Positions 7,151 to 59,927 of a stretch of 64,000 nucleotides of DNA are shown here, piece by piece. The notes under the pieces are model-generated. The model was not told the origin of the DNA and ran no database searches. It saw only the letters and a list, made by a program, of their open reading frames with translations. Made by a program: the position numbers and the translations under genes. Each line of letters opens with the position of its first letter. The first letter of the stretch is position 1. Source of the DNA: a bacterium (lineage in GTDB: Bacteria; SZUA-182; DTGQ01; JAFGSM01); assembly GCA_049472355.1 (NCBI GenBank), contig JBLIRP010000001.1:26993-90992 (forward strand). Direction: 5' to 3'.

Positions 7151-7912
7151 TCAGGTGCGGGGTGATTCGAGGAGCCTGTAGAGAACGGCCCCGCCAAGGA
7201 CCAGGAGCAGGCTGATCAATTGGGTGAGGTTCAGGTGGCCGATCAGGACGAAGCGCCAGTCGCCCCTGAAGAACTCGACAAAAAAGCGGCCTGTGCCGTA
7301 CAGACACAGATAGAGCGCGAAGATCTGCCCGGATGCACGCCTTCCCTTCCTCAGGATGCTGAACAGGATCAGGAACACGGCGAGATTGGCCAGGGAATGA
7401 TAGAGCTGGGTGGGATGGAGGGCTATCCCCAGGGGAGCCAGGGAATTGGGATTGGTGAAGACTACCCCCCACGGAAGGTCGGTCGGCCTTCCGTAGCAGC
7501 ATCCCGCCATGAAGCACCCCATTCTTCCTATGGCCTGGGCGATGGCAAGGGCGGGGGCAAGGATGTCGAGCGTCTTCCAGAAGGGGAGTGCGTATCGTTT
7601 TATGAGCACGATCGTGGCGAGGACCCCTCCCAGGATGCCCCCGTAGAAAACCAGTCCACCCTCCCACAGCTTGAGTATCTTGAGGGGGTCGTGGATATAT
7701 TCCGCCGGATACATCACCACGAAGAGTATCCTTGAGCCCACGATGCCGGCCAGGATCACGAAGAATCCGAGGTCTGCGAGCTTTGCGGTATCGATTCCCC
7801 TGTTTTTTGCCTGCCTGTAGATAAAGGCGGTGGCGGCGAGAAAGGCGATCGCCAGCGCCAATCCGTAGGTATAGAGGGCGAAGGGGCCTATTTTGAACAG
7901 GACCGGGCACAC
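7151..7912 (-). CDS. lgt: prolipoprotein diacylglyceryl transferase
   Basis: 253 aa polytopic membrane protein. The Lgt signature region is present (GGLVFYGGILGG ... RMGCFMAGCCYGRPTDLPWGV). Confidence 0.85.
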   Translation of the reverse strand: MCPVLFKIGPFALYTYGLALAIAFLAATAFIYRQAKNRGIDTAKLADLGFFVILAGIVGSRILFVVMYPAEYIHDPLKILKLWEGGLVFYGGILGGVLATIVLIKRYALPFWKTLDILAPALAIAQAIGRMGCFMAGCCYGRPTDLPWGVVFTNPNSLAPLGIALHPTQLYHSLANLAVFLILFSILRKGRRASGQIFALYLCLYGTGRFFVEFFRGDWRFVLIGHLNLTQLISLLLVLGGAVLYRLLESPRT

Positions 7913-16333: not shown

Positions 16334-18229
16334 TTGGGTATGAGGAGGAAGGATGGTTCACGCCCCCTTTTTGTGTGGAATTGTGTCCTGGCAGTGATTC
16401 TCTGTATGGTATGCCTCTCATGTGCGGCGTGGGCGGATACCTTCGTATGGCAGGACTTCGAATACTGGGATTCCCCAAGAAATCACGGATGGGTCTGCTC
16501 GTCGCCATCCTATCCGGTGTGGGGACCGGTGGGGTACGGCAGCCTTCGGACCGCCATAGACGCGCGCTTGCAGAGCAGGGTCCTGGTGGTCGAGAGCATG
16601 CCCTCCACGTTCAACAACTTCTTCCGCTTCCGCACACTCAACGCCTCGGTCCCCGACCCAAATCCATCCACACAGGGATTCGATAAGAATATCATATCCT
16701 TCAATATCATCAATCGATTCGGGATAGAGCAGTTCGAACAGTGGGAGGCGCAGATACATGTGGAAACCAGAAACGGCAGGAATGTGCTGCTGGTGTATCG
16801 TCCGCGGGGTGCATCCGAGTCGGGGCCCGAGGTGGGCGGTTATGCGGAATACGGGTACAGGGGAGCGATCAATGGGGGGGACCCTGAGCGTTCCGATCGT
16901 CCCCTGGTGGTGATCTACGACATCGGGAGACAATACCAGGACGGCGCATGGCACCTTGTGGTGAGGGATCTTGACGAGGACATTCGGAAGATCGGGATGT
17001 GGCAGGGGATCGATTTTTCCCTTGACGGATTCGGCCAGGAATTGTTTTACGGGCCTGAGCAATCCGCCATCGTCTCCGTCATGTTTGCCGGGTTCACGAT
17101 GAGGGTTGACAATATCGCCTTTCACGACCGCATGCTCGATATCGTCAACCACCCTCCGAAACTCCAGAGGATCGGTCCCCAATTCGCGCAGATATTCGTC
17201 CCCTTCAGCTATCTCATCTCCGTGTATGAACGTTCGGACATGAGCGGTTTCGTTGACGAGCGGTACGAATTCGTTGCGACCATCGGCGGATACGGATACA
17301 GGGGCGTCCAGACCTCCGACATGATCTTCAGGGTAAAGGAGGATCCGAATAACCCGGGACACTATCGTGCCTGTGAGCCGGACGATCCGGCCTGCCTCCC
17401 TGACAAGGTCCTGTTGGAATTTGTTCCCCAGACCTTTGAGGACCTCATCATCACCATACGGGTAACGAATCCGGGAGGGCTTACTGACATGGAGACATTC
17501 CCCCTCTCGGTGGTCAACTATCCGGTGGTCAATCATCCCCCCTACCTCGAGGAGATAGAGAACGATGTCTATCTGCTGGGAACAAACGAGGGATACTTCG
17601 AGAAGTCCTTTATTTGCTTCGACCAGGACATGGAGGATCATCCGGGATCTGCCATGGAGCCCGGAAATATCACCTACCGGGCGATTATCGACACTGCACC
17701 CAATTACCGGTTCGGACCATGGCAGGAGACATTGATCCCCGAGCCTTTCACGCCGGTGATACGATTCAGCCCCCGATTCGAGGGCGTACATCGTATCACG
17801 GTTATTGCCACCGATTCGAGGGGGCTTTTCGCCATAACCGGCTTCACACTGCATGTGGTGAATCCGGGCACATGGCTCAACCACCCTCCGATACTGGGTG
17901 AGGATATCGATAGCCCGCAGATGGTTCGGGTGGGAGAGACCTTCGCCATCCCCGTCGAATTTTTGGACCCTGACAACGAGGAGATATACTATTCATGCAA
18001 CATCGGGAGCATCACCACAATGGAAGAGGGATTCGGAAAGACGCCGGGAAGCAGCATGGGCATCACCGAAGGGGAGGATAGATATGGCAGATACGTGAGC
18101 GGGGCGATCTTTCACTTCGTGTCGCCCTTCCCCGGAACATACCATATCCTTATCACCGCTTATGATCTCAGGGGAGGCTATTGCACGGCCGAATTCATCC
18201 TGGATGTCCAGCCATGGTGGGCACTCTAA
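16334..18229 (+). CDS. secreted NHPP-repeat (cadherin/Ig-like) protein, paralog family member A
   Basis: Signal peptide, conserved DTFVWQDFEYW N-terminal domain, then repeats beginning IVNHPPKLQRIGPQ, VVNYPVVNHPPY and GTWLNHPPI. The C-terminus is ...DVQPWWAL. It shares extensive collinear similarity with the ORFs at 48169-50034 and 57708-59927. Confidence 0.7.
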   Translation: MGMRRKDGSRPLFVWNCVLAVILCMVCLSCAAWADTFVWQDFEYWDSPRNHGWVCSSPSYPVWGPVGYGSLRTAIDARLQSRVLVVESMPSTFNNFFRFRTLNASVPDPNPSTQGFDKNIISFNIINRFGIEQFEQWEAQIHVETRNGRNVLLVYRPRGASESGPEVGGYAEYGYRGAINGGDPERSDRPLVVIYDIGRQYQDGAWHLVVRDLDEDIRKIGMWQGIDFSLDGFGQELFYGPEQSAIVSVMFAGFTMRVDNIAFHDRMLDIVNHPPKLQRIGPQFAQIFVPFSYLISVYERSDMSGFVDERYEFVATIGGYGYRGVQTSDMIFRVKEDPNNPGHYRACEPDDPACLPDKVLLEFVPQTFEDLIITIRVTNPGGLTDMETFPLSVVNYPVVNHPPYLEEIENDVYLLGTNEGYFEKSFICFDQDMEDHPGSAMEPGNITYRAIIDTAPNYRFGPWQETLIPEPFTPVIRFSPRFEGVHRITVIATDSRGLFAITGFTLHVVNPGTWLNHPPILGEDIDSPQMVRVGETFAIPVEFLDPDNEEIYYSCNIGSITTMEEGFGKTPGSSMGITEGEDRYGRYVSGAIFHFVSPFPGTYHILITAYDLRGGYCTAEFILDVQPWWAL

Positions 18230-33820: not shown

Positions 33821-33858
33821 TGTGTCAGGTTTGGGGTCAGGTCTTGAATTGTCAGTTT

Positions 33859-34155
33859 TGTTCTGAAAATATCCTGTATTCATCTGAAAATATGACATTT
33901 TCATGCTTCGTGGCGCCGCAAAGCGGCATGAGGGTTTGCTCCGAAAATATCACATATCCTATTGAAAATAATATTTTCATGCTTCGTGGCGGCCCAAAGT
34001 GGCATGAGGGTTTGTCTCGAAAATATCCTGTATTCATCTGAAAATATAGCATTTTCATGCTTCGTGGCGGCACGAAGTGACATGAGGGTTTGCTCTGAAA
34101 ATAAAATCATATTTTCATGCCTCGTGGTGTAACAGGGTGGTATGAGGGTTTGTTG
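33859..34155. repeat. 4 x ~76-78 bp tandem repeat, each unit containing an imperfect hairpin
   Basis: Unit spans are approximately 33859-33941, 33942-34017, 34018-34095 and 34096-34155. The conserved core is gaaaatat...ttttcatgcttcgtggcgNcNcaaagNgNcatgagggtttg; the fourth unit is degenerate. Confidence 0.7.
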
Positions 34156-34196
34156 CAAAAAACTGATATTTCAAGACCTGACCCCATTCTGTTTTT

Positions 34197-48168: not shown

Positions 48169-50034
48169 CTAAAAGGTCCACCAGGGCTCCACGTCCAGCA
48201 GGAAGGTCATCACTGCATACCCTCCTCTGATATCGTAGGCGATGATCTCAACAAGATATCTTCCCGGCCAGGGAGTGGTCAGGGTGTAGACCGCCCCGCT
48301 CACGTATCTGCCCTTCTTATCCTCGTCGACGGTTTGGCCGATTTCGCTTTCGGGCGTAATGCCGAATCCCGGTTTCATTTCCGTTACACTGCCGATATTG
48401 CATGAATAGTGGATGACATCACCGTCAGGGTCGAAGAATTCAACGGGGATAAGGAATGTCCTTCCGGCCTTGGCAATCTGGGGACTGTCGATGTCTTCGC
48501 AGAGTATGGGGGGATGATTCAACCAGGTCCCGTAATTTACCACCACCAGGGTAAATTCGGTCACCGCCGAAAGCCCTCGCGGATCGGTGGCAATAACCTG
48601 AATCCGGTAAATCCCTTCGAACTGTGGACTGAAGCTGATTTCAGGCACGCAGGGCACCGGGATGATGGGTTCCTGCCAGGGACCATACTGGTAACTGGGG
48701 AGACCATTAATCAGGGCCGAGTAGGTGATGTTTCCCGGCTCCTCGATCGTACCGGGGATGTCTTCTTCATCCTTGTCGTAGCAGACAAATTGCTTGACAA
48801 AATAGCCCTCGTTGCTCCCCAGGATATAGACGTCGTCCTCGATCTCCTCAAAATAAGGCGGGTGGTTCTCCACCGGGTAATTGACCACCGACAAGGGAAA
48901 GGTTTCGATGTCCGAGAGGCCTCCCTCGTCCACCACCCGGATGGTCACTATGAGGTCCTCGAAATGCTGGGGGACAAACTGCAGCATCACCTTGTCCTTG
49001 GCGCATGCGGGATCGCTATTCGCACACAGGATATAGGAGCCGGCATTGTTCGGGTCCTCCTTGACACGGTGGATCAAATCGGTGGTCTGAATGCCTTGGG
49101 AGCCGTATCCCCCTATTGTGGCGAGGAATTCGAGCCTTGACTCGTCTGAGGCGCCGGTGAGCTCGATATCGGTGGCGGTGATGAGGGTGCTGAACGGCAC
49201 GAAGAGCTGGGCATACTGTGGTCCGATCCGCTGCAGCTTGGGAGGATGGTTGATGATATCCCCCAATGTATCGTGAAAGGCGATATTATCAACCATCAGT
49301 TGATACCCCTTCAGCATAATGGAGAGTATCCGTGATTCACCGGGGCCAAAAATGGACTTACCGAATCCGTCCCTGTCGGTGTCGTCCATTTCGTACCCCA
49401 AAGCCATGGCTACATCCCGGTCCAGGTCTCGAAGCACCAGGTGCCAGGTCCCATCCTGATATTGCCTGCCCAGTTCATACACATAACCGGGGGGATCCAT
49501 CCTTCCACTAAATATGTCCCCGGGTCTTCCCTCGTAGGGTATAGGACCTGACTCACCCTGGCCTACCGGGCGATAGATAAGATTGACCTGCTCACCCTTA
49601 CGGGACACGAGGAATACCTGCACCTCCCATTGATCGAACCACTCTATGCCGAACCACATGCGAATATTGAATGAGATGATACTCTTGTCGCTGATGGGAT
49701 CTCCATTGGGGTAGGTGACGGACTCATTCCATGCAAAAAATGGATAGAATTGATTCAGGTGGGACATCATGCATTCATAGAGAAGGACCCTGCTCTGCAA
49801 TCCCGGGTCGATCACCGTGGATATGCGCCCGAATCCGGTATAGGGGCACCATCCGTAGACCGGATAAGGGGGACAGGAGCTCTTCCACCCATAGGTGCTC
49901 GGTGCATTCCAGTACTCAAAATCCTGCCACACGAAGGTATCTGCCCGGGCGCCGGGTCCGGTCAGCAGAAGGTGGAAGCATGCAGCCATCATACATACGA
50001 TGACAACGAGTACGAATCCCCTCTTTTTCACCAT
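48169..50034 (-). CDS. secreted NHPP-repeat (cadherin/Ig-like) protein, paralog family member B
   Basis: Signal peptide, DTFVWQDFEYWNAPSTYGW, IINHPPKLQRIGPQ, VVNYPVENHPPYFEE and GTWLNHPPI. The C-terminus is ...DVEPWWTF. Collinear with members A and C. Confidence 0.7.
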   Translation of the reverse strand: MVKKRGFVLVVIVCMMAACFHLLLTGPGARADTFVWQDFEYWNAPSTYGWKSSCPPYPVYGWCPYTGFGRISTVIDPGLQSRVLLYECMMSHLNQFYPFFAWNESVTYPNGDPISDKSIISFNIRMWFGIEWFDQWEVQVFLVSRKGEQVNLIYRPVGQGESGPIPYEGRPGDIFSGRMDPPGYVYELGRQYQDGTWHLVLRDLDRDVAMALGYEMDDTDRDGFGKSIFGPGESRILSIMLKGYQLMVDNIAFHDTLGDIINHPPKLQRIGPQYAQLFVPFSTLITATDIELTGASDESRLEFLATIGGYGSQGIQTTDLIHRVKEDPNNAGSYILCANSDPACAKDKVMLQFVPQHFEDLIVTIRVVDEGGLSDIETFPLSVVNYPVENHPPYFEEIEDDVYILGSNEGYFVKQFVCYDKDEEDIPGTIEEPGNITYSALINGLPSYQYGPWQEPIIPVPCVPEISFSPQFEGIYRIQVIATDPRGLSAVTEFTLVVVNYGTWLNHPPILCEDIDSPQIAKAGRTFLIPVEFFDPDGDVIHYSCNIGSVTEMKPGFGITPESEIGQTVDEDKKGRYVSGAVYTLTTPWPGRYLVEIIAYDIRGGYAVMTFLLDVEPWWTF

Positions 50035-50378: not shown

Positions 50379-52268
50379 TCAGGCCAGCCACCGCTGAAAC
50401 ATAAAGAGCGTCCACAGCTTCTTGCGGTTGTCGATCCTTCCCGCACAGTGGTCTCGAAGCAATCCATTCACCACATCCGGATCAAAGATGCCCTGCCTTC
50501 GTATCAGATCCGGATTGAGGGTATCCCCGAAGAGTTCCCTCAATTCGCCCTTGATCCATCGGGCCACGGGGATGCCGAATCCCTTCTTTTTTCGATGGAT
50601 GATGGAGCGGGGCAGGAGCGCGGCAACAGCTTTCTTCAACAGGTACTTTGTCCTGAGGCGCTTCAATTTGAATGAAGGGGGAAGACGGGTGACAAAATCC
50701 ACGCAGGTGTGGTCAAGAAAGGGCACACGAACCTCCAGGGAATGCGCCATGCTCGCCCTGTCCACCTTGACCAGGAGATCATCCTGAAGGTAGAGCTTGG
50801 CATCCAGGTAGAGAATCGCATGGAGGGGGTGATTGGCCTTGGCCCTGGCGAGATGATCCCTCACGATGGCGAAGGTGTCATGCTGTGCCAGGGATTCCTT
50901 GATCTCAGGGCGAAAGAGCAACGCCTTATCCTGCGGGCTGAAGGACCCCATCCAGATTGTATGACGAATGCCGGGGGGGAGGGATATGCCGTCGATGAAA
51001 CGCTTTGCACAGAAATCCAGGCTGAAATTTTTGTCCGATACCGGAAGGCTGCGGATAAAGGGTTCCATCAGACCTTCCCTGAGCAATCCGGGGAGTTTGA
51101 GGTAAAGCCCGGCCATGGCGTGTGCCTGGTAGGTGTAGTACCCGGCGAACAGCTCATCCCCACCGTCACCGCTGAGGGCCACGGTTACCTGTTCCCTGCA
51201 GAATTTGCACAGAAGATAGGTAGGCAGCAGTGAGGCGTCACCAAACGGCTCATCCATGATGTCACACACCCTTGGAAGGGCATCCAGCATCTGGGCAGTG
51301 TCGAACATCTTCTGATGGTGGTTGATACCGATATGCCGGGACGCCTGTATGGCAAAATCGGATTCATCAAAGGAAGGCTCGTAGAACCCGATCTGAAAGC
51401 TGTCGATCGACTCATTTGCCTGACGATGGGCAAGGGCGGTGATCGTACTTGAATCGATCCCTCCGCTCAGGAAAGTCCCCAAAGGGACATCACTGATGAG
51501 CCTTCGTTTCACCGAGGCGCCAAGCAGGTCCAAATACTGTTCTTCGCATTCCCTTTCATCGAGCCCCTGTGCGGAGGTCCTTCCCGATCGATAGTCCAGG
51601 TCCCAATACTCCTTGAGCCGGATGGCTCCCTTTTCGAAAATGAGCATGTGGCCGGGGGGAAGCTTTGATACCCCCTGATAGATGGTCTTGGGTGTGGGAA
51701 CATATTCAAAGGTCAGATACAGATCGAGGGCCTCGAGATCCAACTGCGGCTCCCATCCGGGGTGCTTGAGCAGGGCCTTGATTTCGGAGGCAAAGACAAT
51801 GTCCCCCTGTGTGGTGAGCATATAATAGAGGGGCTTTATGCCCATTCGGTCCCTGACGAGGATGAGTCTCCTGCGCTGTGAATCCCACAGGGCGATGCCG
51901 AACATGCCGTTTAGGTCTTCGACAAAGGCATCCCCCTTCTCCTCGTACAGGTGCAGGACGACCTCCCCGTCCGATCCGGACGTGAAATGGTGCCCCCGTT
52001 TGATCAGATCATCCCGCAGTTCGGGGAAATTGTAGATCTCTCCGTTGTGGAGCAGCCAGAGGGTGCGGTCCTCGTTGGTCATGGGCTGATGCCCGGTGGC
52101 GAGGTCTATAATGGAAAGACGGCGCATACCCAGGGCCATGTATCCGTCAAAGTGGGTTCCCCACTCATCAGGTCCCCGATGGACCATCGTGTCACACATG
52201 GCCTTGAGAATGGCATCAGCCGGTTCCGGCCTGGGGTCTTCAGAAGAGAAGCCGCAAATACCGCACAT
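50379..52268 (-). CDS. asnB: asparagine synthetase (glutamine-hydrolysing), AsnB family
   Basis: N-terminal MCGI (Ntn Cys2), an SGGIDSS PP-loop, and a 629-aa length. Confidence 0.85.
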   Translation of the reverse strand: MCGICGFSSEDPRPEPADAILKAMCDTMVHRGPDEWGTHFDGYMALGMRRLSIIDLATGHQPMTNEDRTLWLLHNGEIYNFPELRDDLIKRGHHFTSGSDGEVVLHLYEEKGDAFVEDLNGMFGIALWDSQRRRLILVRDRMGIKPLYYMLTTQGDIVFASEIKALLKHPGWEPQLDLEALDLYLTFEYVPTPKTIYQGVSKLPPGHMLIFEKGAIRLKEYWDLDYRSGRTSAQGLDERECEEQYLDLLGASVKRRLISDVPLGTFLSGGIDSSTITALAHRQANESIDSFQIGFYEPSFDESDFAIQASRHIGINHHQKMFDTAQMLDALPRVCDIMDEPFGDASLLPTYLLCKFCREQVTVALSGDGGDELFAGYYTYQAHAMAGLYLKLPGLLREGLMEPFIRSLPVSDKNFSLDFCAKRFIDGISLPPGIRHTIWMGSFSPQDKALLFRPEIKESLAQHDTFAIVRDHLARAKANHPLHAILYLDAKLYLQDDLLVKVDRASMAHSLEVRVPFLDHTCVDFVTRLPPSFKLKRLRTKYLLKKAVAALLPRSIIHRKKKGFGIPVARWIKGELRELFGDTLNPDLIRRQGIFDPDVVNGLLRDHCAGRIDNRKKLWTLFMFQRWLA

Positions 52269-53159
52269 GGAGCTGTTCAGTCCTTATAAGGATTAAGAAA
52301 AAAAGGGTTCATGGGCCGAAAACAATTACCGCATTATAAACAATATCCTTGGCTGCGGCAACTGCGGCGCTGGTCTTTCATGCCGGGTTTGTCTCAAAGA
52401 AGCAGCCTTTGCCATCAAAAACATGCATGATCCCTTGACAATAGCAAGGGATAAAGGTCTATAAAAGAAATATGATTCTGTTGATTCTCCTTAGGTTTTT
52501 CGCACTTACCTTCAATCGGCACTTCCCGATGCTCACATCGTTCCAAGAGCTTGATATGCGTCAGTATTCTGTAGAAACTCATCATGATGCTGAGAAAAAC
52601 CCCACAAACCCGTCTTTATAGCCTTTTTTGGTGAAGTATCTAAGGCAGAATTCCATTGCAGACGCTGCAAACATCTTGATGTGCGAAAAGCGGGCCTTCG
52701 CATCAAAAAGATGCCGGGCTTCTATGTCATTATATCTGTTGAGTTTCGAGATAAAATGGTCGCTGTCTCAGTAATAAAAATAGACTCCGGCATGTTCTTC
52801 AGTCACCGACAAATAGAATGCCATTGCGGTATCGGCTATCTTCATGTATGCATGCACGGTATTGACAAATGCAATCGTCCGCTTCCTGAAAAAGCGAAAA
52901 TGAAATTCGGCCCACCCATATGGTATGCTGTATCTATGTGCCCATGAAATAATTCTTCCCCTTTCTATCGATCCTCATTTTCTGGTGCATTGGTCTCCTT
53001 TTCACTGCTTGCTGAACTTTTAGATAATATTTGCCTTGACAAAAATCGAAAATTCTGCTTATTCTTTTGTCCAAAAAAGCGATTTCAGATTTCCTATCAA
53101 CTCCAGGCCGATTTGACGATATCCGGTTTTATTAAAGCACAGGATATTGCAAAGGAGGG

Positions 53160-55562
53160 TTGATGTTCCGGAAGGTTTTTTGGATAAATGCGGGCCTCTG
53201 TGTCATCGTGCTGATGCTTTCCTATAACCTGTATCAAATTTGGTCTCAGGTTGCAGTGGATATGAAATCGCCCCCGGGCCGTGCGGAAGAGGTACAAAGG
53301 GCAGATACGCCCGATTCATTGGGAAATGACGGCCCTGACTATACGCCCTCCCCGCGAATGAGCTATGCGCCGATCATCGAAAAGGACCTGTTCAGACCGC
53401 AGCGCGAGGAATGGCAGCCTCCTCAGCGTCAGGCTCAGCAACCGGAGAGTCAGGCGGAGCAACCATTCGCGCCGCAGGCCGGCTTAAAATTACGCGAATA
53501 CCGGTCGAACGAAAGCATGCGGGGCCAGCCGATCCCGGCCGCTGCCGTCAATGTTTGGACCTATGAAGGCGAACCGGTCAGCGCCACGGTGACCGACCGT
53601 CACATCGCCGTTGACTACGGCCGCAGCGGCGTGCTGTTCGACCGGAAGACCGGAGCAGTGGTGCGGCGGCTGACGGTGGCCAGCGGCTGGCCGACCACAT
53701 GGCCCGCCGATTTCGGTCCACGGAACCTCGTTCCGCGCCACCCGCTGTTGGTGGGCCCGGTCGTGGTCAATCCGAATTATTCGCCCGGGGTGGTAATGTC
53801 CGGCGGGCACGCGACGGTCGATTCTCAACCGCCGCAGGTGGCCGTTGCCCAGATCGTTTTCGCCGGCCGCATCTGGCGGGCGATGAAGCCGAAAGCGGCC
53901 TTGGACAAGGTCGAGCGTCCGGAACGCGGCCACGAAATAGCATGGTCGAGTATTCTCAGCGACATCAACGAGCAGTCTTCCCTGGTAGCGACTGCGGACG
54001 ACAACGCCGCCCATGCCGAGCGATTCACCACCGCCCACGGCCTGGCGGGCAACATCGTCACACACCTGGCCGTTCACGATGACACGCTGTGGGCGGCCTG
54101 CATCGATATCTACAATCCGGCTACGAAGAAATGGGACGTAGGCGGACTGTGCCGCTTAGATAAAAATGTCGGCCGGTGGCAGCGAGTGACAATGATCGAC
54201 GGGCGGTCCGTCCGCTGGGTCACGGCCATGGAGGCGATCGGCGACGAGTTGTGGGTTGGCTTCCGGGAGGGCGAGGGCGTGGCCGGCGATCAGATCGTCT
54301 TCGGCATGGGGATTTACCAGGGCCTCTATCGGCCGAACGCGACGGCGATCGTGGTCGCGCGGCTGACCCAGGGGAAGTGGACAAGTTACGCCCGCAAGCC
54401 GTTGCCCGAACCGCAGAGATCCCTCGCGATCGAGCCGCAACGGGCCGTTCCGCCCACCGAGTACCCAACGTCGTTCGCGCGGCTCGGCGATCAGGTGCTG
54501 CTGTTCTCAAAGCGCGACGCCCACCGGAGGTCGGGCAGTTGGGGCATGCGTCTGGCGGGTACGGTATCGCTCTTGGACCTGAATACGGGCCAATGGCGAA
54601 TCTACGACGCCGTGAAAGACCTCGACGCCGATCAGCTTACTGAGATGTTCAGCTGCCGCGGCGAGGTGCTTGTCAGCAGCAATCGCGGCCTGCATCGCTT
54701 CGGCAGCCAGACGGCGGCGTGGCGCCTGCTCGATCCGCAATCGCCGGTGAAAAATCCGACCATCGGCGCGACCGCCGTGGTGGGCGACGAGCTGTGGTTG
54801 GGCTACGATCGCCAGGACTTCTACACGATTGGCCAGCAGGGCATCAGCCGCTATAGCGAGCGGACGGGCCAGTGGTCGCACATGTCGCCTGCCGAACTGG
54901 GCATAGCCAGCCCCGTGCTCCAGTTTGTCACGCTGCCGAACGACGAGACATGGGTGCTTTTCGGCCAGCGCCCATGGATGGGTCCGACGATGCCCCACTT
55001 ATACCAACGCGAATGCGTACCGCGCCCGACCGGGCTGGGGCGGTTTGCCGCGGGCAAGTGGGAGTTCCCGGTCGCCGGTCAGCCGGCCTGCGCCACACCA
55101 CCACGCCATTTCTTTGACGGTACGGATAATGACTTGCTGCAACTGGGCGATTCGTTGATATATCTGTGCGACGGGGCGGTCTACAGCGGCCCGAAGCCGT
55201 GGAAGGAGATTGTTAAAGAGAACGTGATCAGCATTCACCGCGTAGCGCAGGAGCAGGGCGTTGAGATTGTGCGGGCCGCGGAATTGGGCGGGAAAACGAG
55301 ATACCAACAAGGCGTGTACCGCGCCGAGGGCGGCGAGGTGACCTTCGATGGGAATTCTCCGGTACGCTCGGAGTGGGACACATATAAGCCGTGGCACTTC
55401 GAGACCGAGCAAGGCGCGAAGCAGTGGGCCATCGACATCCCGCCCGGCAGCCGGGACTACGACGTGGCCCGTTCGATTCAGACCGCCGCGGCCATTTGGC
55501 TCTTGTCACCCGGTCAGGTGATCCGTTGCGATCGCAAGGCCCTGGAGGAATTGGCCAAGTGA
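53160..55562 (+). CDS. membrane-anchored protein with Pro/Gln-rich linker and beta-propeller (two-component-regulator-propeller / Reg_prop-like) repeats; in a high-GC island
   Basis: Good RBS (aaggaggg). One N-terminal TM helix. Reg_prop-like repeats are recognisable (AIGDELWVGFREGEG; VVGDELWLGYDRQDFYTIGQQGISRYSERTGQW). Very high GC3. Confidence 0.55.
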   Translation: MMFRKVFWINAGLCVIVLMLSYNLYQIWSQVAVDMKSPPGRAEEVQRADTPDSLGNDGPDYTPSPRMSYAPIIEKDLFRPQREEWQPPQRQAQQPESQAEQPFAPQAGLKLREYRSNESMRGQPIPAAAVNVWTYEGEPVSATVTDRHIAVDYGRSGVLFDRKTGAVVRRLTVASGWPTTWPADFGPRNLVPRHPLLVGPVVVNPNYSPGVVMSGGHATVDSQPPQVAVAQIVFAGRIWRAMKPKAALDKVERPERGHEIAWSSILSDINEQSSLVATADDNAAHAERFTTAHGLAGNIVTHLAVHDDTLWAACIDIYNPATKKWDVGGLCRLDKNVGRWQRVTMIDGRSVRWVTAMEAIGDELWVGFREGEGVAGDQIVFGMGIYQGLYRPNATAIVVARLTQGKWTSYARKPLPEPQRSLAIEPQRAVPPTEYPTSFARLGDQVLLFSKRDAHRRSGSWGMRLAGTVSLLDLNTGQWRIYDAVKDLDADQLTEMFSCRGEVLVSSNRGLHRFGSQTAAWRLLDPQSPVKNPTIGATAVVGDELWLGYDRQDFYTIGQQGISRYSERTGQWSHMSPAELGIASPVLQFVTLPNDETWVLFGQRPWMGPTMPHLYQRECVPRPTGLGRFAAGKWEFPVAGQPACATPPRHFFDGTDNDLLQLGDSLIYLCDGAVYSGPKPWKEIVKENVISIHRVAQEQGVEIVRAAELGGKTRYQQGVYRAEGGEVTFDGNSPVRSEWDTYKPWHFETEQGAKQWAIDIPPGSRDYDVARSIQTAAAIWLLSPGQVIRCDRKALEELAK

Positions 55563-56983
55563 GCAAATCCTATTCGTTGCTCGTCAGCGCTATGGCGGGT
55601 GCGGCTGTGCTTGCCTTGGAGGTGTTGGCCGCCCGCGTGATGGCGCCGTTTCTGGGCAGCGGTCCGGTTACGTGGGCCGCGATGCTGGCATGCGCCCTGG
55701 GGATGCTGGCGATCGGCAACGTGCTGGGCGGATTTCTTTGCGATCGGGCACGTCCAGCGGGCACGATCGCTTGGTCGTTGATCGTGGCCGTCGCATGTCT
55801 CGTCGGCCTGTCGCACGGCTACAAGCCGGCGATCGAGTGGACCGCTTCGTACTCGCTGGTCATCAGCGCTCTGTTGGCCGCTTTGATCACGCAGGCTGTA
55901 CCGTTGATAATGCTCGGGGCCGTCACCCCCGTGTTGCTCGGCGAAGGTCATGGCGACACGGGCCGTTGGGCCGGGTTCGTATTGGCCGCAGGCAGTGGGG
56001 GCGGCATCGCCGGGGCACTCACGACGGGAATTGTGCTCATCCCATCGATGGGATTGAGCCGGTCGTTTTTGGTCATCGCGGTCGGTTTGGCGTTTGTTGC
56101 CATACCCGCCCTTTGGCCCGAACGCCGGTGGTTTGGCGCGATTGCGCTTGTCGTGTGCCTGGCGTCGGGCGCGTGGTGCTGGCAGCGGCCCGTGGGCCAA
56201 ACGTCGATCGAGTCGTTCTATGGGCAACTGGAGGTTCACGAGACCGAGTCGGGCCGCGTGCTGCTGGTCGATGGATTGCCGCAGACCGGGATGCCTGACC
56301 AGATCATGCCCGGCGATGGCCTGAGACACGGCTATTTGCTCGAAGCGGCGCTGGCGATCCGCCCGGAAGTGAAACGCACGTTGGTGATTGGCTTGGGCGC
56401 GGGATTGGCGCCGCGGTTGCTTGCGGCGCACGACGTTGCATGTGAATCGGTCGAGATCGATCCTGTTATCGTGGACATCGCCCGCCGCGATTTCGGTTTC
56501 ACCGGTACGGTGGCGATCGGCGACGGCCGCGCGTTCGTTGCACTGGCCACGGGAAGCTACGACTTGATCGTCGTCGACGTCTGTACGGCCGACCGACTCG
56601 CGTGGCATCTGTTCACCCGCGAAGCGATCGAGCTGCTGCGCCGCCGTTTGGCCGCTGGCGGACTGCTGGCGATCCAGTTCATTGGCGATGACGGCCCGTG
56701 GTCGGCCTGCCTGTCGGCGACGGTAGAAGCCGTGTTCGGGCGCGGCCAAACAGTGATCGTGGCCCCGGCAACCAAATCAGGCGGCGTCGAGCCGCGCTGG
56801 CTCTTCGCCGCCGAAGGGCTGCCGCCGCGCCTGCCGCTTGAATTGGCTGCGGTGCGCTATGGCGCCCCGTGGCGCGTTCTCGACACACCATCCCAAGGCC
56901 AGATCCTTACCGACGATCACTTCCCCGCCGAGCACGCCTGGGCTCGAACCGCGAACCAGTGGCGTCGGCGCTACGGTAGCTGA
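55559..56983 (+). CDS. fused polytopic membrane domain / spermidine-synthase-like (class I SAM-MTase fold) protein
   Basis: About 7 TM helices, then a polyamine aminopropyltransferase-like domain (GRVLLVDG...; VIGLGAGL...; DLIVVDV). A GTG start overlaps the upstream stop (GTGA); the next in-frame ATG is at about 55592. Confidence 0.6.
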   Translation: MSKSYSLLVSAMAGAAVLALEVLAARVMAPFLGSGPVTWAAMLACALGMLAIGNVLGGFLCDRARPAGTIAWSLIVAVACLVGLSHGYKPAIEWTASYSLVISALLAALITQAVPLIMLGAVTPVLLGEGHGDTGRWAGFVLAAGSGGGIAGALTTGIVLIPSMGLSRSFLVIAVGLAFVAIPALWPERRWFGAIALVVCLASGAWCWQRPVGQTSIESFYGQLEVHETESGRVLLVDGLPQTGMPDQIMPGDGLRHGYLLEAALAIRPEVKRTLVIGLGAGLAPRLLAAHDVACESVEIDPVIVDIARRDFGFTGTVAIGDGRAFVALATGSYDLIVVDVCTADRLAWHLFTREAIELLRRRLAAGGLLAIQFIGDDGPWSACLSATVEAVFGRGQTVIVAPATKSGGVEPRWLFAAEGLPPRLPLELAAVRYGAPWRVLDTPSQGQILTDDHFPAEHAWARTANQWRRRYGS

Positions 56984-57608
56984 TAAACACCGTTTGCCGG
57001 TCTGTCAGGGCTGAGATAATGAATCCATTTGCGGTCGTCATCCTTCCCCAATTAGCGCTTCTTGAGTTCCGGGCATTTGAGCTTAAAGCGCCATCTTTCT
57101 CTGAAGCTCTATATAAAATGAAAAAAGGCGGTTCTGAAAGGCCTGCAATTCGACGATCCTGATTTTTGCTACAGCCCCTTCATGAGGTTTTTTCTGTGTA
57201 TCCTGCTCGAAGATGTCATAAAAAGCGCCGTGAAAACAGGATCACAGCAAAATCCAGCCCTACGGAGAATCGTTGCCTGCCTGCTTTTCCGATGTGGTGA
57301 TCGTAGGGCCGACCAAAGGTGCAATGAAGAAGATGAACATGGCCAAAAGACCCGGGGAAAGAGGCTCATGTCAAGTCTCTTGGCAAGGTAAAAGGCGAGG
57401 AACATGAACAGAAGAAAGAGGGGGCGAATATGATGACCAGCGGCTTGGTATAATAGCTGCGGATGTTCCTTCTGGTGATCATACCGACACCCCGGATAAA
57501 CTGCCAGTTGATCTACTCACTTGACATGTCCTGCATCTCCTGTCAGCCTGAGGAATGCATCCTTGAGGCTCGCCCTGCCTATCTCAAGGGATTCTGCGCC
57601 GGGAGAAA

Positions 57609-57646
57609 TAAAAAGGGCCCCTGGAGATACCAGGGGCCCTTTTTTC
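57609..57646 (-). terminator. intrinsic terminator: 12-bp GC-rich perfect stem (aagggcccctgg / ccaggggccctt) flanked by A5 and T6, bidirectional
   Basis: Perfect inverted repeat with poly-T. It lies 60 bp downstream of the stop of the 57708-59927 gene on the minus strand. Confidence 0.65.
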
Positions 57647-57707
57647 GTCATATGCGGGCCATTGTTACATGAGTCTTCAACCCGGCGTTAACCGATACGA
57701 CAATTCA

Positions 57708-59927
57708 TCAGAACGACCACCACGGCTTGACCTCGAGGTCGATGGTGACCACGGCATAGCCTCCCCGTATGTCGAAGGCGATGATTTCAACCTGGTAAAA
57801 ACCGGGGAAGTGGGTGTAGAAGTGCCAGTACAAATCGCCGCTGGGCAGGGTGCCGGTGGAGCCGATGTTGCTCGAAAAGTAGATCTCGTCGCCATCGGGG
57901 TCCTCCACCCTGAGGGTGGGGGACGACAACAGAAGTGGTTCCCCTGCCCTGACCACCTGCGGATGGTCCCAATCCATCATGATGACCGGGGGATGATTGA
58001 GCCACGTTCCCTTGTTGATGCTGAAGAGCATGAACTCGCCGATGGCCGAGGCACCCCGGTCATCCGTGGCCACCAGCCGGGCGCGATAGCTACCCTCGAA
58101 TTTTGGGGTGAACCGTATGAGACCGCTGCAGGGTTCGATCATGCTTTCAAGCCAGGGCCCGTATTGATAGGAGGGGAGACCGCCAAGGGTAAAGCTCCAG
58201 AATATGTTGTCCATGTCCCTTCTGAACTGATCAGTGAGGGGGAATCCGGGCACATGGGTGGTTGCGGGAAGGTTCGACAGCGAGAATATCATGCAATCGG
58301 CGTCAACAATGCCGACGGCATAGGTGTTGAGCTGTCCTACGTAGAAGATCTGATCATCGAGGTCTTCGAGATAGGGGGGATGGTTTTCAACCGGATAGTT
58401 CACCACGGATATGGGAAACGTCTCCAGATCCGATACCCTCCCGTCGGTCACCTCGATGCTCAGGATGATATCCTCGAAGTACTGAGGGGTGAAATCGAGT
58501 CGTGCGATATTGGGCCAGTAGGTAAAACCGGCGTTCCACAAGGCGCATTCCAGGTAGAAGCTGGGCAGGGGCCCGAAAAAGGGCCTTCCGAAACGCGCGA
58601 TGACCTCTTCGGCGTCATAATAGGCGGGGATATAGGTCGGCATGCCGTCGTAGGGATTGATCTCCAGCGGGTTTATGCCGTTGAACTGGACCCCGCTCGC
58701 CCCGATCCCTCCGACCGTGGCGTTCCAGCCCAGCGTTTGGTTGAAGGATGTTCCGGGAATGAACTCCAGATGCGGATTGCTTCCCAGGCGGTAGTTGGGA
58801 TTCGCAAAGATGGGCAGGTTGACGTCCACGATGAAATCCCTGCCGATGAGGTCCGATATGTTGGGGTCCGCCTCCGTGCCGAACCTGTTGGGATCCGCCC
58901 CCAGGGAGATCCAGTAGTCCTCGATTGCATTGGGATCAGTGATGAAGATGTCCTCAAATCGGTCGGTGAGCAGGAAATCAAGGACATTGGAGATCTCTTC
59001 GTCCCCGGTGTCATAGTCCGCGAAGAAAAGATACCGGTAGGGCTCGAAGATCTGCGCATAGCGCGGGCCGATTTTATACAGATACGGCTGATACTCGTCG
59101 TAAGGGACCACGCCTCGTTTATGGAAGGCGATATTGTCAACCCGCAGCAGGGGGTGCTGAAACTTGACCATGGCCACCATGGAATTTCCCGTATCGCCGG
59201 TTGACGGATGCGGTCCGAACCCGTCGCTGTTGTTTCGTTCCCCGTCATCGGTAAGGTCCACATCCCGGTCCAGATCCCTGATGATATGGCTCCACCTCCC
59301 CTGGTTGAACTCCCTGCCTATTTGGAAGAGAAAACCGGGGGGATCGTACATCCCGGTAAAGATGTCGCCGGGTATTCCGTCCCTGAACACGGGGCCGGTT
59401 TCGCACATCCCCTCGGGCCGGTAGATGAGGAGCACCTGATTCCCGTTCCTGGAGATCACCATGATCGCCATCTCCCAGGTATCCCAATGCTCGATGCCGA
59501 CAAAGGGTATCATGATATCGAAGGAGAACAGGCTCTTGTCGTTGATGGGGCTTCCGTCGGGGTAGGTGACGTTTTCGTTCCAGGCAAAGAAGGGATAAAA
59601 CTGGTTTAAGGGGGACATCATGCACGAATAGAAAAGCACCCTGCTTTGCAGGAAGGGGCACATGATCGTCTCGATCCTGCCGAATCCCGTGTAGGGGCAC
59701 CATCCGTAAACAGGGTAGGGGGGACACGAGCTCTTCCACCCGTAGTTGCTCGGTGCGTGCCAGTATTCGAAATCCTGCCATATAAAGGTATCGAGGCTGC
59801 GCCAGTCGGTGGACATCAATTCCTGCTGGGTGTAAATGGCTGACGTTGCCGGGGTCCCGGAAAACAATAGAATACCGCAGATGGCCCCTATAATGAGAGG
59901 AAATAGGACACATCCCCTTTTGAACAT
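57708..59927 (-). CDS. secreted NHPP-repeat (cadherin/Ig-like) protein, paralog family member C (longest, with extra insert)
   Basis: Signal peptide, DTFIWQDFEYWHAPSNYGW, VVNYPVENHPPYLED and GTWLNHPPV. The C-terminus is ...EVKPWWSF. It has about 120 extra residues in mid-protein relative to member B. Confidence 0.7.
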   Translation of the reverse strand: MFKRGCVLFPLIIGAICGILLFSGTPATSAIYTQQELMSTDWRSLDTFIWQDFEYWHAPSNYGWKSSCPPYPVYGWCPYTGFGRIETIMCPFLQSRVLFYSCMMSPLNQFYPFFAWNENVTYPDGSPINDKSLFSFDIMIPFVGIEHWDTWEMAIMVISRNGNQVLLIYRPEGMCETGPVFRDGIPGDIFTGMYDPPGFLFQIGREFNQGRWSHIIRDLDRDVDLTDDGERNNSDGFGPHPSTGDTGNSMVAMVKFQHPLLRVDNIAFHKRGVVPYDEYQPYLYKIGPRYAQIFEPYRYLFFADYDTGDEEISNVLDFLLTDRFEDIFITDPNAIEDYWISLGADPNRFGTEADPNISDLIGRDFIVDVNLPIFANPNYRLGSNPHLEFIPGTSFNQTLGWNATVGGIGASGVQFNGINPLEINPYDGMPTYIPAYYDAEEVIARFGRPFFGPLPSFYLECALWNAGFTYWPNIARLDFTPQYFEDIILSIEVTDGRVSDLETFPISVVNYPVENHPPYLEDLDDQIFYVGQLNTYAVGIVDADCMIFSLSNLPATTHVPGFPLTDQFRRDMDNIFWSFTLGGLPSYQYGPWLESMIEPCSGLIRFTPKFEGSYRARLVATDDRGASAIGEFMLFSINKGTWLNHPPVIMMDWDHPQVVRAGEPLLLSSPTLRVEDPDGDEIYFSSNIGSTGTLPSGDLYWHFYTHFPGFYQVEIIAFDIRGGYAVVTIDLEVKPWWSF

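Follow-up and report, generated by a model that had tools for sequence, protein, structure and literature searches.

A Planctomycetota-like accessory segment encoding a membrane-anchored propeller protein and a seven-helix enzyme that looks more like an N-methyltransferase than a spermidine synthase

The window, i.e., the whole stretch of 64,000 nucleotides analysed here, carries two genes (gene 1 and gene 2), both long and intact, in a GC-rich island; its neighbours are the gene for asparagine synthase and one for a hypothetical protein, described here as a surface-protein paralogue. The features of the locus are as follows.

50379..52268, minus strand: asparagine synthase (glutamine-hydrolysing), left backbone neighbour
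52367..57593, unstranded: variable accessory segment of 5,227 nt (left AT-rich arm, two-gene operon and right arm), delimited by alignment with the sister contig L005
52367..53162, unstranded: left AT-rich arm, GC ~0.40-0.45, non-coding or decayed, no gene identifiable
53036..53065, plus strand: candidate sigma-70-like promoter, TTGACA-18-TATTCT (10/12), a consensus match ~100 nt 5' of gene 1
53163..55562, plus strand: gene 1, 799 aa, ATG start, AAGGAGG ribosome-binding site (RBS)
55544-55549: GGAGGA RBS of gene 2
55559..55562, plus strand: GTGA start/stop overlap, the GTG start of gene 2 overlapping the TGA of gene 1
55559..56983, plus strand: gene 2, 474 aa
56390..56404, plus strand: GLGAG motif, gene 2 residues 278-282, in place of aminopropyltransferase GGG(D/E)G
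56561..56602, plus strand: DLIVVDVCTADRLA motif of gene 2, including D340
56984..57593, unstranded: right arm, GC ~0.47-0.52, no gene identifiable
57409..57549, unstranded: 141-nt indel polymorphism in the right arm, missing in L008 and L011-L013, present in L009 and L010
57610..57644, unstranded: bidirectional intrinsic-terminator hairpin, perfect 15-bp stem with an A-tract on one side and a T-tract on the other
57708..59927, minus strand: 739-aa hypothetical protein, right backbone neighbour, paralogue of 48169..50034 and 16334..18229

The contig L005 aligns with the window through 52366 and resumes at 57594, and a 134-nt MITE-like element alone lies in between. Part of the left arm (52908-53162) is common to L008 and L004. 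The AT-rich spacer from the start of the asparagine synthase gene (52268) to gene 1 amounts to 894 nt, in agreement with the ~890 bp given in an earlier note on this DNA, and the GTGA overlap reported in the same note was recovered together with the RBS of gene 2. The earlier count of exactly two genes holds for long, intact genes; NCBI additionally annotates a 69-aa ORF (57463..57672, MGA1794276), a probably spurious reading frame that runs across the hairpin. The strong bidirectional terminator described downstream of the pair does exist, but it is not part of the island: the hairpin lies 627 nt 3' of gene 2 and belongs to the conserved host backbone, as it is found also in L005, where the island is missing.

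The composition changes sharply at both borders and many short Logan contigs stop near them, as might be expected if planctomycete DNA had been joined to the host contig during assembly or binning. Nevertheless, L009 (run DRR851379) runs without interruption from 51507 to 57883, covering both borders at 99.5% identity, L008 (DRR851349) continues past the right junction for 7.5 kb of backbone, and L010-L013 also pass this junction. The crossing contigs stem from different runs and an independent assembler, and the places where contigs end match 31-mer repeats, the MITE among them. As independent assemblies span both borders, the island is not a chimera, and we find the idea of an assembly artefact hardly credible.

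The same locus is polymorphic in a sister lineage, the flanks of which are 87–94% identical to those of the window: it bears either the island (99.3–99.8% identical), a truncated version of it, or the 134-nt MITE-like element only. The segment is absent from L005. In L008, it is present at 99.3% identity and is joined to a flank that is 99.96% identical to the L005 type and 87.3% to the window type. The identity between the window and L005 climbs towards the island. No naive empty site was found among these sequences, and the 'empty' sister site with its MITE-like element may be a secondary deletion.

The GC, tetranucleotide and codon profiles were all non-uniform. The coding part of the two genes has a GC content of 0.640 against 0.529±0.016 (maximum 0.582) in all other 3.82-kb windows (z≈+7), and the GC track moves from ~0.40-0.45 (52.3-53.2 kb) to 0.61-0.68 (53.3-57.0 kb) and then to ~0.47-0.52 downstream. 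Thus, the high-GC island first noticed from the sequence alone is real, as are its long antisense shadow ORFs (e.g., 411 aa at 55514..56749 on the minus strand). The GC3 value, which had been taken to be well above the surroundings, is 0.77 and falls within the host range (mean 0.669±0.05, maximum 0.782; ~+2 SD). Amino-acid composition accounts for 65–81% of the raw GC excess, because host codon usage alone would give 0.601 and 0.636 for the two proteins; homologues of the pair are also GC-richer than their own flanks in most genomes. Raw GC and GC3 are therefore unsuitable as the main proof of transfer, and each of these values would suit a native, vertically inherited pair, the high GC of which simply reflects proteins rich in Ala, Gly, Pro, Arg and Trp. 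However, the remaining signatures lie far beyond the host range. The tetranucleotide signature of the island correlates with the rest of the window at r = 0.41 (other windows, 0.905±0.025, minimum 0.853), and the RSCU RMSD against the host is 0.61 and 0.74 for the island genes versus 0.325±0.064 (maximum 0.484) for host genes. AGG codons are almost missing while CGC, GGC and NCG are favoured, and the CpG odds ratio is 1.25 versus 0.92. The RSCU of the island correlates better with genes flanking the homologues in Planctomycetota contigs (r = 0.75-0.88) than with its own host (r = 0.53).

Vertical inheritance is also at odds with the phyletic distribution. Among the 43 homologues of gene 1, the named ones belong to a Planctomycetes bacterium and Sedimentisphaerales. 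Gene 2 falls in a subfamily of 45-60% identity with named members in Pirellulales, Planctomycetaceae, Thermoguttaceae, Planctomycetia or Sedimentisphaerales, beyond which the identity drops sharply to <=34%. On the host side, the best named relatives of the IleRS (58-60% identity) are Thermodesulfobacteriota, Nitrospinota and Nitrospirota, with no planctomycete among the best 120 matches; this single marker places the host outside Planctomycetota. Taken together with the near-identical copies in diverged backgrounds and the absence or truncation of the island in near-identical sister genomes, vertical inheritance is already disfavoured, and we consider it very improbable. The non-host RSCU and tetranucleotide signatures, the homologue set and the presence/absence polymorphism instead support horizontal acquisition of Planctomycetes-like DNA by an uncultured, non-planctomycete host, on stronger grounds than those on which the earlier note had proposed it. 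The nearest homologues outside reach no more than 49% identity for gene 1 and 60% for gene 2, and so point to no particular donor. At nine distinct loci (37-60% identity), gene 2 comes immediately after gene 1, which bears out the guess that the pair would co-occur in Planctomycetota. The two genes are not always paired: gene 2 is missing downstream of five gene 1 homologues, and gene 1 is missing in several cases where a gene 2 homologue is present.

The operon is flanked by AT-rich arms with broken ORFs only, a MITE-like element occupies the same locus in the sister lineage, and in L063 a gene 1 homologue adjoins integrase-arm, excisionase-like and IS200-like genes. In addition, a weak 25-nt imperfect inverted repeat (52425-52449/57573-57597, 72% complementary) lies near the two ends, its right arm close to the right junction. 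These points could be read as traces of an element once able to move by itself (an integrative island or a composite transposon, for instance), with mobility genes decayed into the arms. Nevertheless, no ORF or fragment of either arm showed similarity to a transposase or integrase (Pfam at E<=10), nor did tblastx against the collected sequence reveal a transposase; the sole hint in the left arm pointed to family-2 glycosyltransferases and was not significant (E 0.8), and the frameshifted transposase-like fragment suspected upstream is not supported. The inverted repeat does not stand out from 17 further pairs of chance level in the same 6 kb; its left arm sits 62 nt inside the left junction. 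The segment has neither a tRNA nor a target-site duplication, and no convincing flanking repeats were found. We thus regard an eroded self-mobile element as quite unlikely. The segment resembles genomic islands, or flexible genome segments, in its deviant signature, foreign phyletic affinity, presence/absence polymorphism at a fixed locus and AT-rich borders, but differs from them in lacking an integrase, a tRNA target, direct repeats and transfer genes, and in being a single operon of only 5.2 kb.

In the gene 1 protein, a TM anchor at the N-terminus (residues 2-33) is followed by a disordered linker rich in Pro and Gln (33-100), tandem beta-propellers and a small C-terminal domain. The AF2 model (pLDDT 81, pTM 0.80) has an all-beta body, and its best Foldseek matches are the tandem beta-propellers of the BT4663/BT4673 sensor domains and PorZ (E 2e-11 to 5e-9). 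The global TM-scores are low (0.15-0.30), as expected when the relative domain orientation differs. Searched by itself, the protein matches nothing in Pfam or NCBIfam and stays below the Pfam Reg_prop threshold, whereas its family profile matches Reg_prop/PorZ_N proteins at 1e-50 to 1e-15. Judging from model and profile, the TM-anchored, Reg_prop-like propeller recognised earlier is a bitopic protein with tandem Reg_prop/PorZ-type propellers. Unlike the Bacteroides hybrid two-component sensors BT4663 and BT4673, it has no histidine-kinase, receiver, AraC or Y_Y_Y domain; unlike the T9SS component PorZ, it has no T9SS C-terminal domain; and it differs from all three by its single N-terminal TM anchor.

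Gene 2 combines seven TM helices (residues 1-208) with a spermidine-synthase-fold domain (216-474) in the AF2 model (pLDDT 89.6), in line with the membrane domain fused to an aminopropyltransferase fold that had been proposed. The protein exceeds the cut-off of the uncharacterised NCBIfam family NF037959, 'fused MFS/spermidine synthase' (128.8 versus 40 bits, residues 15-393), but differs from that family in belonging to a tight subfamily and in having seven helices, not the twelve of MFS. Several observations would suit a genuine membrane-bound polyamine aminopropyltransferase, making or attaching polyamines at the membrane with gene 1 as its periplasmic sensor or regulator: the Pfam Spermine_synth match (1.7e-7), the NCBI name 'spermidine synthase', top Foldseek matches that are all spermidine synthases, and 36% identity over 154 aa with the SpeE of Synechococcus. 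Moreover, an N-terminal beta-hairpin domain precedes the Rossmann domain as in SpeE, the ribose- and adenine-binding residues are conserved, and D340 (equivalent to the catalytic Asp of SpdS), E299 (equivalent to the ribose-binding Glu), D322 and Y259 are invariant. Nevertheless, gene 2 scored 18-52 bits against the SpeE equivalog models and passed none of their cut-offs (250-537 bits), and the diamine-binding D-S-S-D-P of SpeE is replaced by D-V-C-T-A-D. All 40 aligned homologues have Ala or Gly at position 281, the acidic position of GxG(D/E)G. Loss of this acidic residue abolishes SPDS activity and brings a gain of methyl transfer (PMC3725402), and the same criterion set NHMT apart from spermidine synthases (PMC10349129). 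No SpeD/AdoMetDC gene was found in the island or the listed homologue neighbourhoods. Gene 2 is thus probably not a polyamine synthase; the polyamine-related role suggested for the pair lacks support, and we deem a membrane-bound aminopropyltransferase unlikely.

The closest known architecture is that of fungal NHMT (Aspergillus nidulans AN4663), the 7TM N-terminal histidine methyltransferase of LPMOs, the 7TM domain of which was reported in Pezizomycotina only (PMC10349129). Both proteins consist of ~210 aa with seven TM helices followed by a spermidine-synthase fold, carry the same misleading 'spermidine synthase' annotation, have lost the acidic residue (I322 in NHMT, A281 in gene 2), conserve the SAM-binding Glu in VEIDP, and share the motif YD-x-IV-x-DV-x-T-x-[DE], the DV-x-T-x-[DE] part of which covers the substituted diamine-binding site. 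The two are 39% identical over 119 aa of the catalytic core (hhalign probability 98.8%, E 5.6e-17). On the other hand, their TM domains show no detectable sequence similarity, and gene 2 is bacterial, 84 aa shorter and co-transcribed with a propeller protein. As the acidic residue that selects decarboxylated SAM is missing, gene 2 is predicted to use SAM for amine N-methylation, and it looks more like a SAM-dependent N-methyltransferase than a spermidine synthase. By the positive-inside count, the catalytic domain is slightly more likely to be periplasmic (5.35 versus 3.2), in a compartment for which no SAM supply is known.

Overall, we moderately favour the view that the island is an acquired, Planctomycetota-like accessory segment, the operon of which pairs a propeller with a SAM-dependent, amine N-methylating 7TM enzyme in an envelope-modifying module. 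Counted against this explanation were the want of mobility genes, repeats, a naive empty site and an identified donor, the origin of most of the GC excess, the single taxonomic marker and the optional pairing; for gene 2, so were a core as similar to genuine cyanobacterial SpeE as to NHMT, the TM domains that do not align with NHMT and the periplasmic side mildly favoured by the positive-inside count. On this favoured explanation, 52,367-57,593 would have been acquired horizontally and inserted between the asparagine synthase gene and the surface-protein paralogue. Carrying no mobility genes of its own, the segment may have spread among related lineages by homologous recombination via its flanks, and may have been lost or truncated beside the MITE-like element in the sister lineage. 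The two genes would be translationally coupled in one operon. Gene 1 would act as a bitopic inner-membrane protein, the periplasmic tandem propeller of which is a probable ligand-binding domain (for a glycan or a protein, perhaps), and gene 2 would use SAM to N-methylate an amine like fungal NHMT, METTL13-C and plant PMT, not for polyamine synthesis. In the most likely working model, the two proteins form a complex in the membrane; an envelope component or an exported molecule serves as the substrate, which the propeller captures or presents for alkylation by the 7TM enzyme. Most likely, then, the pair is an acquired module for envelope modification, with an amine as the methylation target.

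The pair of translationally coupled genes described in the earlier note was confirmed, and the two genes lie between two backbone neighbours as follows:

50379..52268 (-): asparagine synthase gene, left neighbour
53163..55562 (+): gene 1, 799 aa; ATG start, with AAGGAGG upstream
55559..56983 (+): gene 2, 474 aa; GTG start overlapping the TGA stop of gene 1 (GTGA), with GGAGGA ~10 nt upstream
57708..59927 (-): 739-aa hypothetical protein, right neighbour

The GC content rises from 0.39–0.45 at 52.3–53.2 kb to 0.61–0.68 at 53.3–57.0 kb, and falls to 0.47–0.52 beyond. The coding part (53163–56983) reaches 0.640, against 0.529 ± 0.016 (maximum 0.582) in all other 3.82-kb windows (z ≈ +7), and antisense shadow ORFs, the longest of 411 aa, are abundant across the high-GC region. 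Both the GC jump and the shadow ORFs noticed previously are thus genuine, but the accompanying claim for GC3 is not, as the value of 0.77, albeit about 2 SD above the mean, remains within the host range (maximum 0.782). When both proteins were re-encoded with host synonymous usage, GC contents of 0.601 and 0.636 were obtained, as compared with the observed 0.630 (gene 1) and 0.657 (gene 2) and the host mean of 0.546; 65% and 81% of the GC excess are therefore attributable to amino-acid composition. The island proteins are rich in Ala, Gly, Pro, Val and Trp and poor in Lys, Asn and Ile. As homologues in most other genomes likewise exceed their own flanks in GC, the GC content alone is weak evidence of transfer.

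The choice among synonymous codons departs from that of the host. Host genes favour ACC, CCC, CTC, TCC, AGG and GGG, whereas the island genes favour ACG, CCG, GCG, TCG, CGC, GGC and TTG, and AGG is nearly missing from them. The RMSD of relative synonymous codon usage (RSCU) was 0.61 and 0.74 for the two island genes, against 0.325 ± 0.064 (maximum 0.484) for host genes of ≥350 codons and 0.24–0.34 expected under host usage. A per-codon log-likelihood of synonymous usage had suggested host-like codon usage, but this measure lacked resolution, and the RSCU values superseded it. The CpG odds ratio is 1.25 in the island and 0.92 in the host, and the composition-normalised tetranucleotide signature of the island correlates with the rest of the window at r = 0.41 (0.905 ± 0.025, minimum 0.853, for other 4-kb windows). 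The profiles proposed earlier as a check (GC, tetranucleotide signature and codon usage) all deviate from the host. The RSCU of the island correlates at r = 0.75–0.88 with genes flanking the homologues in Planctomycetota contigs, one of which also matches in GC3, as compared with r = 0.53 for its own host.

Comparison with close relatives delimits the unit. A contig of a sister metagenome-assembled genome (L005; GCA_049472315.1) is 87–94% identical to the window, but the alignment stops at 52366 and resumes from 57594, defining a variable unit of 5,227 nt (52367–57593), and between the two aligned parts L005 holds only a 134-nt palindromic MITE-like element. Among independent Logan assemblies, L009 is continuous over 51507–57883, including both junctions, at 99.5% identity, and the right junction is also crossed by L008, which reaches 7.5 kb of backbone, and by L010–L013. 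The borders are thus spanned independently, and the concern that the contig might be chimeric is settled. The island of L008 is 99.3% identical to that of the window, whereas its flank is 99.96% identical to the L005 type and 87.3% to the window type; in L009, the right flank matches the L005 type at 100%. One and the same island thus resides in two backgrounds differing by 6–13%. Identity between the window and L005 climbs toward the island: on the left it steps up from ~91% to 97% at ~51.5 kb, 97% being the value for the final 0.9 kb, and on the right it starts at 96% next to the island and has dropped to 86% 2.5 kb away. Such gradients (51500–52366 and 57594–59500) are the pattern that would be expected of a tract of recombination running through both flanks, with the island at its centre.

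L008 begins with degenerate copies of MITE ends directly against window position 52908, and L006, from the same run, stops 31 nt into the MITE, past the asparagine synthase gene. Taken together with L005 and L009, these data indicate three states of the locus in the sister lineage, namely full (L009), truncated beside the MITE (L008) and MITE only (L005). Since a truncation bound by the MITE is among these states, we infer that the 'empty' site more likely arose by MITE-associated deletion than represents a naive site.

Several other features of the locus were noted. The single-unit 134-nt copy of the MITE-like element lies at 7540–7672 in L005, precisely at the site of the missing island. The window carries a copy elsewhere, at 33833–34185, with 27-nt terminal inverted repeats (GGGGTCAGGTCTTGAATTGNCAGTTTT) enclosing some four tandem repeats of a ~62-nt unit whose core is hairpin-like (catgcttcgtggcg...ggcatgag). 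The right arm is polymorphic for a 141-nt indel (57409–57549), carried by the window, L009 and L010 but not by L008 and L011–L013, with ~6 nt of microhomology at the deletion joint. Within gene 1, L008 and L009 share eight clustered SNPs (54312–54560) that set them apart from the window; the remaining island is almost SNP-free, which suggests either a small recombination patch or a distinct allele of the island in the sister lineage. Three paralogous hypothetical proteins of 620–740 aa are encoded at 16334–18229 (+), 48169–50034 (-) and 57708–59927 (-), with ~69–70% nucleotide similarity in parts and a weak match to PKD as the sole domain match. Two of them are near the island, one to its left, past the asparagine synthase gene, and the other immediately to its right. 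The latter is the region of greatest divergence between the two lineages (79–90% identity), and its sister-lineage counterpart is of 584 aa in L005 and 648 aa in L008.

The ~890 bp of AT-rich DNA described upstream of the genes is real (894 nt), but the frameshifted transposase-like fragment reported within it is not supported. Neither transposases nor integrases were detected by Pfam at E ≤ 10 in ten ORFs and concatenated fragments of both arms, and tblastx of both arms against all sequences gathered for this study gave no match. In a tblastn search against plasmids, the left-arm fragment matched only GT2 glycosyltransferases at a non-significant E of 0.8. A tRNA scan and a search of 52–58 kb for Rfam families were empty except for one sub-threshold sRNA match, and the direct and inverted repeats at the island borders are at chance level only. 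The strong terminator proposed downstream does exist as a perfect hairpin (57610–57644; 15-bp stem, with an A-tract on one side and a T-tract on the other), but it sits 627 nt past gene 2 and is part of the conserved backbone. A 69-aa hypothetical protein annotated by NCBI at 57463–57672 (+) (MGA1794276) overlaps both the 141-nt indel and this hairpin, has a cluster that contains no homologues, and is unlikely to be a genuine gene. As for the hallmarks of a horizontally transferred island, we found a deviant signature and variable presence among close relatives at one locus; mobility genes, a tRNA target and flanking direct repeats were not found.

The affinities of the host and of the island genes point in different directions. 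The window is part of a 111-kb contig of a metagenome-assembled genome. For the host IleRS, relatives were found at 72–75% identity; those that carry a name are at best 58–60% identical and belong to Thermodesulfobacteriota, Syntrophaceae, Nitrospinota and Nitrospirota, and no planctomycete was present among the best 120 matches. The named organisms among 43 detectable homologues of gene 1 are a Planctomycetes bacterium and Sedimentisphaerales, and an exhaustive profile search recovered ~40 full-length clusters (50% identity). The tight subfamily of gene 2 (45–60% identity) has named members in Pirellulales, Planctomycetaceae, Thermoguttaceae, Planctomycetia and Sedimentisphaerales; beyond it, identity falls to ≤34%, in other phyla. 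The nearest homologues elsewhere share just 49% (gene 1) and 60% (gene 2) identity, which leaves the donor lineage unsampled. Horizontal acquisition of the island, as proposed in the earlier note, is well supported by the foreign signature and the presence/absence polymorphism; that note was largely right, except for the transposase remnant and a polyamine-related function.

The two genes were found directly one after the other, with overlapping or closely spaced ends, in nine distinct loci at 37–60% identity (the window, L001, L003, L062/L064, L072, L073, L075, L079 and L081). Nevertheless, gene 2 is missing from the 3 kb or more that follow five homologues of gene 1, at least two of which (L065 and L069) bear, as judged by eye, a signal-peptide-like N-terminus, and several homologues of gene 2 occur without gene 1. 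The pair is thus a conserved operon, but not an obligatory one. Another candidate pair, in L063, was rejected by profile search, the downstream gene not being a homologue of gene 2. In this region of L063 (6160–11706), the gene 1 homologue (52% identical, truncated to 613 aa, without gene 2 downstream) has as neighbours a fragment of an integrase arm-binding domain, an excisionase-like gene (HTH_17) and a Y1 transposase of IS200-like type, suggesting a mobile context in that genome.

The gene 1 protein matched nothing in Pfam or NCBIfam up to E ≤ 10, PF07494 (Reg_prop) included. Its AlphaFold2 model, built with 39 homologues (pLDDT 81, pTM 0.80), comprises an N-terminal helix (2–33), a disordered Pro/Gln-rich linker (33–100), an all-beta body (~105–720) predicted to adopt a tandem beta-propeller fold, and a small C-terminal domain. 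The best Foldseek matches (E 2e-11 to 5e-9, probability 1.0, with low global TM-scores) were the BT4663 and BT4673 sensor domains, which are periplasmic double-propeller domains of Bacteroides hybrid two-component systems (HTCS), and PorZ of the T9SS. The gene 1 family profile matches proteins of 1,350–1,450 aa in 10–15 repeated stretches, and these proteins carry Pfam Reg_prop (1e-37 to 1e-40) and PorZ_N. The label 'Reg_prop-like' given earlier therefore stands at the level of profile and structure, Reg_prop being reached only via the family profile, and gene 1 represents a branch of such propellers that had not been described. Unlike the HTCS sensors, it has no transmitter, receiver or DNA-binding domains; its single TM helix is N-terminal, with only residue 1 ahead of it. 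The model thus depicts a membrane-tethered periplasmic propeller, predicted not to act in signalling by itself.

Gene 2 scores 128.8 bits (cut-off 40; residues 15–393) against NCBIfam NF037959, 'fused MFS/spermidine synthase', and is a member of this named but uncharacterised family. Its AlphaFold2 model (pLDDT 89.6) has a spermidine-synthase fold preceded by seven TM helices:

Gene 2 residues 2–32, 36–63, 66–95, 100–129, 135–164, 166–185 and 191–208: TM helices 1 to 7 of the AlphaFold2 model

The top 50 Foldseek matches are all SpdS/SpeE (E ~3e-9, TM-score by target ~0.6), and the gene 2 profile matches 27 SpeE chains in PDB as well as the SpdS-like N-terminal methyltransferase domain of METTL13 (1.2e-10). 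E299, D322, D340 and Y259 are conserved in the alignment to solved SpeEs. In contrast, the diamine-binding loop D-S-S-D-P of SpeE is replaced by D-V-C-T-A-D, with an invariant first Asp (D340, at the position of the catalytic Asp), and residues 278–282 read GLGAG in place of GGG(D/E)G, the Ala (A281) aligning with the D/E of 1uir, 6qmm and AtSPDS; this position is Ala or Gly in 40 of 40 aligned homologues. The uniformity of GLG[AG]GL in the distant loci L020–L054 is not evidence, because this motif was their search pattern. The acidic residue of GxG(D/E)G serves to bind decarboxylated SAM through its aminopropyl amine and to keep out SAM by repelling its carboxylate (PMC3725402, PMC10349129). 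In Datura SPDS, D103I abolished aminopropyl transfer and conferred putrescine N-methyltransferase activity (PMC3725402), and it was by the same substitution (I322) that NHMT of Aspergillus nidulans, a 'spermidine synthase' by annotation, was recognised as a SAM-dependent N-terminal histidine methyltransferase (PMC10349129). Position 281 is decisive in the light of these studies, and the alignments show that gene 2 has lost the residue specific for decarboxylated SAM. Gene 2 also misses every cut-off of the SpeE equivalogs in NCBIfam (52.2/260, 44.7/304, 39.5/472, 34.8/249.6 and 18/537 bits), and the polyamine reading is not supported on either count.

NHMT has seven TM helices up to residue 215 followed by a SpdS-like domain (PMC10349129), the same order as in gene 2. 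For comparison, the NHMT protein was rebuilt from the supplementary DNA of that paper (OCR text; a few X residues). Gene 2 matched it with 39% identity over 119 aa by BLASTP (E 7e-15) and 98.8% probability by hhalign (E 5.6e-17), both covering the catalytic core only (gene 2 residues 269–414). A281 aligns with I322, both non-acidic, and E299 in VEIDP with the SAM-binding E340; the two proteins share LVIGLGxG, VEIDPV, D-x-RAFV and YD-x-IV-x-DV-x-T-x-[DE]. Neither program detected a significant match between the TM domains or homology to the NHMT-specific segment 389–394. The idea that gene 2 resembles NHMT more than it does SpeE was rejected, as its similarity to a genuine cyanobacterial (Synechococcus) SpeE is about equal (36% over 154 aa). 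In the membrane domain of gene 2, a Glu/Arg pair in helix 1 (E21 and R26; window 55619–55636) is conserved in 97% of homologues, W39, N54, P115, P124 and W137 are invariant, and helix 5 is Gly-rich. Such conservation points to a putative functional site, perhaps for the passage of a substrate or cofactor, rather than a simple anchor.

The conserved Lys/Arg count mildly favours an N-in/C-out topology for gene 2 (5.35 vs 3.2), which would place the catalytic domain in the periplasm, just as NHMT must face the ER lumen. Gene 2 is predicted to catalyse SAM-dependent N-methyl transfer to an amine, in a putative physical complex with the gene 1 protein, whose propeller may capture the substrate. It is attractive, albeit rather improbable, to speculate that the pair is a bacterial counterpart of NHMT, with a periplasmic SpdS-fold domain, SAM supplied through the seven-TM domain, and a propeller recruiting exported proteins or envelope polymers for N-methylation. 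Neither a periplasmic supply of SAM nor periplasmic SAM-dependent methylation is known in bacteria. NHMT is, to our knowledge, the only characterised seven-TM enzyme of SpdS fold, a protein N-terminal methyltransferase reported as fungi-specific. The literature searched contained no description of the gene pairing or of a bacterial parallel to NHMT.

The present case documents the transfer across phyla of a compact operon, which later moved between diverged lineages without mobility genes. Raw GC and GC3 may be misleading both ways, whereas the question of transfer is decided by codon choice together with a comparison of populations. Moreover, the widely distributed bacterial family that bears the annotation 'spermidine synthase' or 'fused MFS/spermidine synthase' matches NHMT both in architecture and in the diagnostic change of motif. 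If the pair is genuinely a counterpart of NHMT, the whole of this large 'fused MFS/spermidine synthase' family would be mis-annotated. Should the bacterial proteins prove to be methyltransferases, many genomes would carry wrong annotations of the polyamine pathway, and a new system of envelope modification would be open to testing.
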